From Eledone cirrhosa (Eukaryota): 64,000 bases of DNA. The stretch's first letter is position 1. Each line of letters opens with the position of its first letter. Location: assembly GCA_964016885.1 (NCBI GenBank), contig OZ024741.1, forward strand, positions 212,660,001 through 212,724,000. Reading direction: 5' to 3'. Position numbers and translations under genes: made by a program. The notes beneath the pieces are model-generated. The model did not search any database. It saw only the letters and a list, made by a program, of their open reading frames with translations, and had not been told where the DNA came from. Below, piece by piece: positions 40,263 to 62,444 of this stretch.

Positions 40263-40274
40263 ATATATATATAT

Positions 40275-41152
40275 AAATATATATAAATGAAAGTTATAGA
40301 AAACATTGTAGCGAAAAGCCAACAGTATTCCATAATATATATAATTTACTATAGCCTCAAAATGGGAAAAATAGTTAACGTAAGATGTGGGAAATATAAT
40401 TCAAACTCATCTCAAAGAGAATCAGGATATAGATTCATCCACAGAATTTAGTGAAATCCAGGGAAAAATCAATAGAGCCCTAACTCATGATAAAATAAAG
40501 TTTAAAATACTCATCCTTCAATTTGGAAAAACTTCAAATGCTCTGTATAGTCTTAAAGTCTATTTCACGAAAACTTTCAGTGGAGATGGTCACGGTTGGA
40601 ATTCGATCCTCAGCAGAGCTCAACTCGATAACCAAGATTCTCACAGATTAATATGCCAAAAAGGGAATTTCAAACAGGCTAGTTCACCATCATGCGTGAT
40701 TATGAAAAATAAAACTCACATGAGGAAAGACAGGGCTGGTGACGTCAGAATGAGATGAATGTTTGTTTACAAGAAACAACAGTCAAAAAACATTCCGAAA
40801 AAAACTCTACAATAAGGAGTTCAGCAAAAAGCAATATTATCGCGGTTTTTTATAAAAAAAATACCGGGATTAGTCACAAATAATTTAAGCACTCTAGGAA
40901 AGAAATCCGAGTATAAATATATAAATGAAATGTATAGAAAACATTGTAGCGAAAAGCCAACAGTATTCCATAATATATAAGTGACTATAGCGTCAAAATG
41001 GGAAAAATAGTTAACGTAAGATGTGGGAAAAATAATTCAAACTCATCTCAAAGAGAATCAGGATATAGATTCATCCACAGAATTTAATGAAATCCAGGGA
41101 AAAATCAATAGAGCCTTAACTCATGATAAAATAAAGTTTAAAATACTCATCC

Positions 41153-41157
<5 letters not shown>
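40275..41157 (-). mobile_element. Family RzD (~636-bp HHR repeat), 1.4 tandem units
   Basis: Direct repeat with period 636-638; inverted partial copy at 42565-42825; diverged copy at 61515-62130. Confidence 0.85.
40540..40619 (-). ncRNA. Type I HHR with extended stem II (RzD)
   Basis: gctctg CTGAGGA t-cgaa...ttcg-t GAAA tagactttaagacta TA cagagc. Confidence 0.8.
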
Positions 41158-42475: not shown

Positions 42476-42564
<89 letters not shown>

Positions 42565-42569
<5 letters not shown>

Positions 42570-42825
42570 ATGAGTATTTTAAACTTTATTTTATCATGAT
42601 TTTTCCCTGGATTCCACTAAATTCTGTGGATGAATCTATATCCTGATTCTCTTTGAGATGAGTTTGAATTATTTTTCCCACATCTTACGTTAACTATTTT
42701 TCCTATTTTGACGCTATAGTCACTTATATATTATGGAATACTGTTGGCTTTTCGCTACAATGTTTTCTATACATTTCATTTATATATTTATACTCGGATT
42801 TCTTTCCTAGAGTGCTTAAATTATA
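42565..42825 (+). mobile_element. RzD partial copy (opposite orientation to 40275-41157)
   Basis: Reverse complement of ~40880-41155. Confidence 0.85.
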
Positions 42826-60608: not shown

Positions 60609-61514
60609 ATCTTTGAAGCCTTATCGAAAAATGTTTACTATAGAAAAGTGGTCTGAATTGTAGGGTGCCCTTTGTAGGGGCAAGACTTGTACTATCAGTC
60701 GCTTAACGTCAACGAAACCGGGAAAAACACCTTCCTAATAAAACTCAGAATCAGACACGATATAGACATGTTTTTAGTTGAGGAATATTTGTCTGTTCTT
60801 CTAGCAGATGATGGTAATTAGTACCTAGACCATCACACATTGGTCCGCTGTACCAAACTCACTATACGCACGTGGAAGATTATCTAACGTCATGTTTAAA
60901 TAGGAATAAAATGTTCCACAGCTGTGGATCTTGTAGTAAAATCTAATTTTCTTCACCACTGATTTTATCGATTGGCTTTTTAATGATTCGATTTTTATAT
61001 CCACATCTATGATCTACAACAATGCAAGCAATGCAGTGAAGAATCGATACTGACAAAGATGCCGATAAACATCGGAACAGCAACAACAACATCGTTTCTT
61101 CAATCAATACCACCGCAACGCTAAGGTTAAAATCATCCTGATTACAATGAAACTAATAGTGTATGTGAAAGTGCGTAGCTTGGTGGTTAGGCTGCTAGGC
61201 TCACGTCTGTAAGGCCGTTGGTATGTGGTGTTCTTGAACAAGACACTTTATTTTTCGTTGTTCCAGTCCACTCATCTGGAAAAACTGAAATGTCAGTAAT
61301 CCAGAGCACTAATGAGTTTGCTGTTCTCTTGAACAACATATATAGTGTATAAGCTATATATATATATATATATCCTTCTTCTCACTTTTCGTTGCTTCAC
61401 CATTTTTGTTTGTTTACACTCGTGTCCCCTTTATTTACGTGTCCCAACGACTTTTTTTAGCCGTTGCTCGCACCAACCGGAGGTATATGGACTTTAAAGC
61501 GATGAAATACCAAT

Positions 61515-62130
61515 GATTCCAACCGTGACTAAACCCACTGAAAAGTTTCGTGAAATAGTCTTTTAAGACTATATAGTGCATTTGAAGTTTTCCCCAAATT
61601 GTCGGTTAAGTATTTCTTGTTGATTTTATTTTGAATTAAGATTGTATTGCTTTTTCCCCAACTTACAGAAAGTCTTAGGATAAAGTTTTTCTTCTTGATT
61701 TGTTTTGAATTAAGATTGTATTACTTTTCCCTCATCCTACATTAAACATTTTTTCATCTTGATGGTATAGTCACTTATATGCCTGGATTATTGTTGACAT
61801 TTTGCTTACATTAATTTCTCTATTTTCATTTAGATATTTATACTCGAAATTTTTCTAGAGTGCTACTATTATTTGTGACTAATCCCAGTTTAAAAAAAAA
61901 CTGCGATAATATTGCTTATGCTGAACTCCATATTTTTGTTGAGTTTTTCGGAATGTTTTGACTGTTGTTTCTTGTAAACAGGTTTTCGTCTCATCCCGCC
62001 ATCACTAGCTTGTGTCCACGTGTGTTTTGTTATCTCATTTCTACACGCTGTCGCTTGCCTGCTTTTAATTCCCCTTCGGCATTTTAGCAGTGGTCATTTG
62101 GATAATGTGTTGTGCACTACTGAAGATCAA
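61515..62130 (+). mobile_element. Diverged RzD monomer, permuted within the ribozyme
   Basis: Collinear with the reverse complement of the 40275-41157 unit; the HHR halves lie at opposite ends. Confidence 0.8.
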
Positions 62131-62397
62131 CTTTTTAAAGATATAATATAGACACAAACACATATATATAGTCTAACAAAGTTCTTTCGTTGCACATCTG
62201 CAACATCGTCAGTGGTGCTATTATGTTTCTTCCTGTTGTATTGTATGTCTACGCCATCTTTATCTGTTTATTTATTTATTTATTTATTTATTTATTTTTG
62301 GCTTCTTATCTGCGCATGCGTTTGCGTGTGTGTATAGTGTTTGGTGTGTATAACAATATTTGTTTCGACACACGGTTTCATATCAAAATCTTCGCAA

Positions 62398-62439
<42 letters not shown>

Positions 62440-62444
<5 letters not shown>

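Follow-up and report, generated by a model that had tools for sequence, protein, structure and literature searches.

A retrozyme-like tandem repeat family in Eledone cirrhosa and a single unit opened within its predicted hammerhead ribozyme

The window analyzed here is a stretch of 64,000 nucleotides of the Eledone cirrhosa genome (GenBank assembly GCA_964016885.1, contig OZ024741.1, forward-strand positions 212,660,001 to 212,724,000), and positions are counted from its first letter unless another locus is named. An octopus is also the probable host by protein comparison, a neighboring protein having its nearest named relative in Octopus vulgaris (68% identity). Near its right end, at 61515-62128 on the forward strand, lies one 614-nt unit of a high-copy tandem repeat family, here termed family D, whose units measure ~615-635 nt and carry a predicted type I hammerhead ribozyme. 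The unit, hereafter the split copy, is opened inside stem II/loop II, and its start at 61515 reads GATTCCAACC. It is one component of a composite in the order TA-E-D-F(inverted)-F-TA at 61355-62441, bounded by a TA tract at either edge and free of such tracts within (Table 1). The two ends of the split copy are junctions to two unrelated repeats, families E and F, a circumstance missed by the earlier note on this DNA.

Table 1. Components of the composite and of the split copy, with the other family D copies of the window
Feature	Position	Strand	Basis or remark
(TA)n, left edge of composite	61355..61373	.	
Family E fragment	61373..61517	+	98.6% to other copies
Loop II strands, predicted pseudoknot helix	61526..61540	+	pair counts, helices 1 and 2
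Predicted hammerhead, 3' half: stem II 3' strand, GAAA, stem III, stem I 3' strand	61548..61579	+	sequence, pair counts
Parts of the 3' half: TCGT; GAAA; stem III; UA; TAGTGC	61548-51; 61552-55; 61556-71; 61572-73; 61574-79	+	sequence
5'-flank strands, predicted pseudoknot	62088..62104	+	pair counts
Predicted hammerhead, 5' half: stem I 5' strand, CUGAAGA core, stem II start	62114..62128	+	sequence, intact junction elsewhere
Parts of the D copy end: GCACTA; CTGAAGA; TC	62114-19; 62120-26; 62127-28	+	sequence
Filler between D and F, 10 nt	62129..62138	.	
Inverted piece of family F (pseudo-LTR of a Penelope-like element), hammerhead-like core	62139..62349	-	
Terminal 'tail' of family F, 53 nt	62349..62401	+	
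(TA)n, right edge of composite	62402..62441	.	
Typical D copy, 1.39 units	40272..41156	-	canonical 3' end, TA both sides, intact hammerhead 40540-40619
Partial D copy, 0.4 unit	42564..42824	+	without ribozyme

Family E is a young 635-bp tandem repeat, and its fragment here ends ~40 nt before the nearer of its usual 3' ends. It joins the split copy through a 3-nt GAT microhomology, these letters being common to the left edge of D and to E, and the junction is unique in the genome. On the other side, the similarity of the 10-nt filler to D stem III, and likewise to part of E, falls short of significance. No TA or target duplication is kept at the internal junctions, and a 17-nt, 76% repeat (61493/62134) proved too weak to be taken as a target-site duplication around the unit. 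The remainder of a longer D copy was found neither downstream in the window nor in the next 6 kb. Private differences number 17 of 611 positions in D versus 6 of 375 in E and F together (p = 0.28, with few E and F copies for comparison); ages do not separate the D piece from the E and F pieces. Family E, which also occurs at 45012-45092 and at two further loci (L040, L042), is abundant; its copies target TA, have one or the other of two fixed 3' ends and include inverted pieces. A descriptor scan found no hammerhead in E, although CTGATGA and GAAA are present, and the family may carry another ribozyme. A fragment of a SINE-like repeat lies upstream of the composite at 61170-61290.

The split copy is 94.3% identical to the nearest full D unit. 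Its boundaries are uncertain by 0-4 nt, since 62129-32 could correspond to unit positions 1-4 with one CpG change, in which case the copy would reach 62132. The earlier note had rejoined the ends as tcaa|attcc, which leaves a mismatch in stem II; the ends do rejoin, and the clean join is TC|GATTCC (62128 to 61515), identical to the junction of the subfamily. Cleavage is predicted after 61573. The copy is atypical in that neither of its ends is a family D end. The intact ribozyme at 40540-40619, in the minus-strand copy of the window, belongs to a subfamily 73-75% identical to the split copy. The closest relative of the split copy was found inside an 859-bp inverted duplication with arms 99.5% identical (L341, 4343-6482), one arm of which also ends at unit position 4 and then TA, a coincidence for which we have no explanation.

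That ribozyme halves lie at the two ends of the copy and rejoin into a hammerhead, as the earlier note had seen, is borne out by the rest of the genome. A degenerate 24-mer spanning the rejoined junction occurs at 459 places in the 3.0-Gb genome and its reversed control at none; the end-to-start match to the intact junction is beyond chance. When the joined ends are folded at minimum free energy, stems I and III form and stem II does not (z = -1.0). Rfam returned no match at the gathering score for seven loci, and in the window no hammerhead among the matches listed (150 of 319), negatives that are uninformative for a hammerhead variant with a long loop. Because the fold of the joined ends lacks stem II and Rfam does not detect the motif, the structural case rests on comparison rather than on folding energy.

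The comparison used 76 of 96 natural intact copies, the other 20 having been dropped for deletions, mis-parsing or membership in an old array. The proposed structure pairs in 93.4% of cells across the 76 copies, and in 29-41% when it is slid along the alignment as a control. Changes on both sides are seen at eight pairs, each of which may reflect a single event, and this count was equalled by 1 of 500 shuffles, which ignore relatedness. Stem I holds compensatory pairs, UA in 42 copies and AU in 32 at one pair, AU in 69 and GC in 7 at another. The core, the GAAA and the UH are conserved over D copies, and each unit appears to contain a type I core with three stems. No indel occurs at the cleavage junction in 148 of 150 copies, which were selected by regular expression. 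Loop II may also pair with the 5' flank: this additional helix, paired in 92% of cells and with one position AU in 34 copies, GU in 28 and GC in 13, is a predicted pseudoknot; one private change of the split copy, at 62102, breaks one of its predicted pairs.

The earlier note had proposed that ribozyme pairing was under selection and had pointed to compensatory change in stem I of the split copy between strands ~540 bp apart. The first part finds support, in that stem I covariation across the copies points to selection on the source RNAs of family D. The second does not: the GCACTA/TAGTGC form of stem I is inherited with the subfamily and occurs in 18 intact ribozymes, so that it offers no evidence of pairing over 540 bp. 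The stem I changes define subfamilies and are found in intact ribozymes. A patch of 5-7 nt between the predicted pseudoknot strands (alignment columns 11-17; 62093-62097 in the window) varies among D copies much more than the sequence on either side of it, which suggests many source lineages or a hypermutable loop. Short deletions within loop II or stem II recur at seven D loci (L061, L079, L085, L091, L098, L226 and L239).

A search with the split copy as query gave at least 78 matches, with 37 of 2579 candidates scored, and nearly all of them begin at a variable point, run through the ribozyme junction and end at unit position 327/328 in (TA)n. Among 30 loci chosen solely by an intact junction, 29 end at unit positions 326-329. 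A mid-unit pattern with 738 matches was reduced to 97 distinct alignments, 80 of which have the canonical 3' end at unit position ~328. The pattern for this end followed by TA occurs 910 times, and 88 of its first 100 places yielded 87 insertions, five rows of which are less reliable in that the alignment stops short of the 3' end. The 5' ends of these 87 inserts are scattered along the unit; 16 inserts reach at least 600 nt, and 46 pass the predicted cleavage site, with only one stopping at unit positions 50-65. There is no pile-up of D 5' ends at the cleavage site. The other copies, which the earlier note supposed would all share fixed linear ends if the split copy were a chance truncation of a dimer, are thus mostly fixed at the 3' end and variable at the 5' end, which bears out that condition by half. 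Most 5' ends adjoin TA and cluster at AT-rich patches. Stops at the one-unit point (positions 307-333) account for 12 of 66 inserts and stops at an AT-rich patch (218-229) for 11 of 40, so that a stop after one lap as a general rule was rejected, the one-unit point being no stronger than the patch.

Tandem head-to-tail inserts of 1.95, 2.8, 7.5 and about 9 or more units are present. The 7.5-unit insert is a young TA-flanked array with units 0-2.2% apart (L301, 2028-6715; G000:C1:79095000-79099700) and is a candidate source locus. An old array, whose units (about 9 or more) are 12-16% apart, lies at L145 (1-5869) and L144 on C28 and also on C159. In 42 inserts longer than ~1.15 units, successive rounds differ by a median of 5.2% versus 10.3% to other inserts, and rounds within one insert usually have derived variants in common; the nearest neighbor is the insert's own other round in only 21 of the 42, which we count against the explanation preferred below. 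Because there are inserts of 1.95, 2.8 and 7.5 units that run across the ribozyme junction, a circular or multimeric template is well supported at the level of the family, and the similarity of rounds, the long inserts and the indel-free junction indicate that this template was continuous across the cleavage site. A religated circle would fit best if the ribozyme is active, with an uncut multimer as the alternative. The earlier note had argued for such a template from the split copy, which is the weaker ground, and ordinary D copies show it better.

Family D has no long open reading frame among the longest frames examined, in a region of ~34% GC. A search for family F, with 150 of 34,211 candidates scored, gave matches nearly all 93-95% identical to the query, and at one locus (L250) the repeat stands on both sides of an ORF of 1218 amino acids. 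This ORF contains reverse transcriptase (RT) motifs, a cysteine linker and a GIY-YIG-like C-terminal end. The C-terminal part matches GIY-YIG at E = 2e-4, just under the cut-off, and three homologs match RVT_1 weakly; the whole ORF gave no Pfam or PDB match. By these features F is the terminal repeat of an EN+ Penelope-like element, with a single ORF encoding RT followed by a C-terminal GIY-YIG, and with pseudo-LTRs. A second Penelope-like family, G (L354-L356, L365), has frames of 850-970 amino acids. Both F and G have open frames with RT and GIY-YIG, a visible cysteine linker, and ends in TA. Near its 3' end G has a minimal hammerhead-like motif with an altered core.

On C28 the old D array joins a broken RT fragment at unit position 507 without TA, an arrangement seen in three places. 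The fragment matches neither the F protein nor its profile (E = 0.016) and was assigned to G through its own family. At E <= 0.01 D has no match among F loci, and at E <= 1e-4 none among 15 loci of family G, and its interpretation as a terminal repeat of either was rejected; among the D copies seen, no fusion to the 3' end of a Penelope-like element was noticed. The mobilizer of D is accordingly proposed from anatomy only, there being no similarity to the terminal repeats of F and G. D has the anatomy of a non-autonomous Penelope-like element, namely a fixed 3' end, 5' truncation, partial tandems and a microsatellite target, and likely behaves as a non-autonomous Penelope-like passenger.

The explanation we prefer, and regard as probable, is that D is a high-copy non-LTR retrozyme with a predicted hammerhead, likely copied into (TA)n by a Penelope-like RT, that both ends of the split copy are junctions to other repeats, and that their exact one-unit spacing is likely coincidental. 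In outline, multimeric D transcripts would self-cleave and be ligated into circles, a nicked TA target would prime at the AU-rich stretch at unit position ~315-328, and the RT would go round the template through the cleavage site, mostly stopping at AT-rich microhomologies. At the locus of the split copy, a longer D insert would probably have lost its ends as F and E inserted into the same tracts, or afterward through deletions at microhomologies. Such a history of nested insertion plus deletion we hold to be about as probable as its opposite. Counted against it are the need for two separate trimming events and the low chance of an exact unit length, ~0.2% per copy from the stopping rate and 1.1% under random truncation of copies that span mid-unit. 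Since some hundreds of truncated D copies are likely by our estimate, one or more exact monomers would be expected somewhere.

The non-canonical copies bear on the same point. Once array views, one duplicate and three copies with internal deletions are set aside, ~9 non-canonical 3' ends are left of the 97 alignments. The lengths of these copies span 0.49-1.09 units; three of the nine fall at 0.96-1.09 units (P = 0.11 under random truncation), and none comes to within 4 nt of a full unit. Counted against coincidence are further permuted near-monomers that open elsewhere in the unit, at L012 (93 to ~89), which was found with the split copy as query and is a biased case, and at L288 (521 to 534). 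A break pattern at the split site has six matches, of which two are true breaks, one being the split copy itself, and stem II was rejected as a break hot spot on this ratio.

A plausible alternative, to which we give somewhat less than an even chance, takes all of 61373-62401 as one insertion, in which a Penelope-like RT began on its own RNA (F), passed to a D circle, went once round it, passed to E RNA and ended in TA. On this account the RT met its own start after one lap of D, and the exact unit length would be the footprint of a circular template. It agrees with the confinement of TA tracts to the outer edges, the lack of the usual 3' ends in both E and D, the microhomology between them, the similar age of the pieces and the missing D remainder, and the join between a D array and a Penelope-like RT fragment on C28 is a second direct one. 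Against it, the one-unit point is passed by 54 of 66 ordinary inserts and so is not where the RT usually halts. Also against it, almost the same F breakpoint adjoins an unrelated flank at L044, and the flanks of the 97 alignments showed no conspicuous case of D joined directly to E or F. L1 twin priming yields an inverted piece within an insertion, and by analogy the inverted F suggests that the DNA to its left was already present as target. L1 also produces template-switch chimeras, twin-priming inversions and target deletions, with several RNAs or an inverted piece per site and microhomology joins; the present composite differs in joining a retrozyme to a second tandem repeat and to a Penelope-like element, and in having neither poly(A) nor a target duplication. 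The full form of this alternative, in which the composite is a single frozen reverse transcription where a Penelope-like enzyme went from its own RNA to a retrozyme circle for exactly one lap and then to a third RNA, is possible and in our judgment rather doubtful. If it were true, the frozen one-lap event and the C28 join would prove, at the level of junctions, that retrozyme circles are copied in trans by Penelope-like RTs, and copying in trans would prime at one AU-rich site with a TA-repeat target.

The remaining explanations are far less probable. That D inserts are freely permuted monomers, with the split copy itself selected for ribozyme pairing, would account for ends that rebuild the ribozyme and for the near-monomers that open elsewhere; the fixed 3' end of most copies contradicts it, the stem I form is inherited, and the split copy has its 17 private changes, one in the predicted pseudoknot, all of which leave it very improbable. 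Equally improbable is that D spreads at the DNA level, as a satellite or by reinsertion of excised DNA circles, with RNA circles uninvolved. Long arrays do exist and the L301 array has signs of local duplication, its units 1 and 4 being identical, but dispersed, 5'-truncated copies with TA targets and a fixed 3' end are what retrotransposition would leave, and the compensatory ribozyme changes point to selection on RNA. An assembly artifact joining three repeats is the least credible of all. The three pieces are high in copy number, no contig spans the whole composite, and RAD reads leave the E-D junction unbridged. The D-F junction, in contrast, is crossed by RAD reads of two other samples, which end at 62067 and by their length run across it (105 at >=92% in X7 and 89 at >=99% in X8), although these reads have one common start and may be copies of one molecule per run. 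A contig joint spanning 61284-62143 (runs X1-X3) was discarded, having only 21 nt on one side and possibly deriving from another locus.

The preferred explanation places D in a known class. Metazoan non-LTR retrozymes are defined, and their circles shown, in PMC7229834, which also proposes Penelope-like elements as the mobilizers that make tandem cDNA. Like these retrozymes, D consists of apparently non-coding, AT-rich tandem units, each with a (here predicted) type I hammerhead, ranging from monomers to multimers, and co-occurs with Penelope-like elements. It appears to have the sequence characters of a non-LTR retrozyme and would be a further family of the known class, not a new mechanism. 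Its unit is longer than the ~220-400 nt of coral, mussel and axolotl retrozymes and lies within the 51-972 bp range given in bioRxiv 10.64898/2026.07.22.740005, and it differs in its ~31-nt loop II with a predicted 12-14-bp pseudoknot. The fixed 3' end and TA targeting mapped for D do not appear in the available portions of PMC7229834 and the bioRxiv paper. The latter reports co-occurrence of retrozymes with Penelope-like elements and homology of terminal repeats, leaves the mechanism open, and found one of nine predicted Xenopus elements to cleave in vitro.

PMC8557442 describes partial tandems, inverted pieces, tails and a (TA)n bias in Penelope-like elements. In what is available of it, the Neptune/Nematis elements and Chlamydomonas MRC1 resemble the D locus in their 5' truncation, partial tandems, inverted 5' pieces, tail and (TA)n targets. 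F and G would be Neptune/Nematis-type by their C-terminal GIY-YIG and cysteine linker. D differs from MRC1-type elements, and from 24 of 57 Xenopus retrozyme families, in that it has no apparent ORF and that no similarity to the terminal repeats of F or G was detected, and its predicted ribozyme is full-sized where the Penelope type is minimal. The portion of PMC7761336 available to us finds no motif that points to the retrozyme mobilizer. A literature search of articles, excluding supplements, returned no paper on cephalopod retrozymes, though the supplement of PMC7229834 or supplements on bioRxiv may list such a family, and it returned no relevant biochemical paper on Penelope-like priming. 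Because the retrozyme class and the circle model are already published, the split copy alone is of modest significance. The anatomy of D insertions is useful because the enzyme that moves animal retrozymes and the priming on circles are open in the literature available to us, and this genome could serve as a concrete test system, since it offers a defined putative site of internal priming, targets in TA, inserts that read through the predicted cleavage site, and, as candidate enzymes, two of Penelope-like type with open frames.

Other features of the window may be recorded here. A loose descriptor, used without a chance control, marks hammerhead-like motifs at 3699(-)/4119(+), 41334(-)/41787(+), 10077, 15071, 49672(-) and 50287(-), some of them in inverted or TA-flanked repeats. 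A perfect 136-bp palindrome occupies 45309-45444, with a related stretch after the L301 array, and a tandem repeat with a period of about 466 bp extends over 45763-48650.
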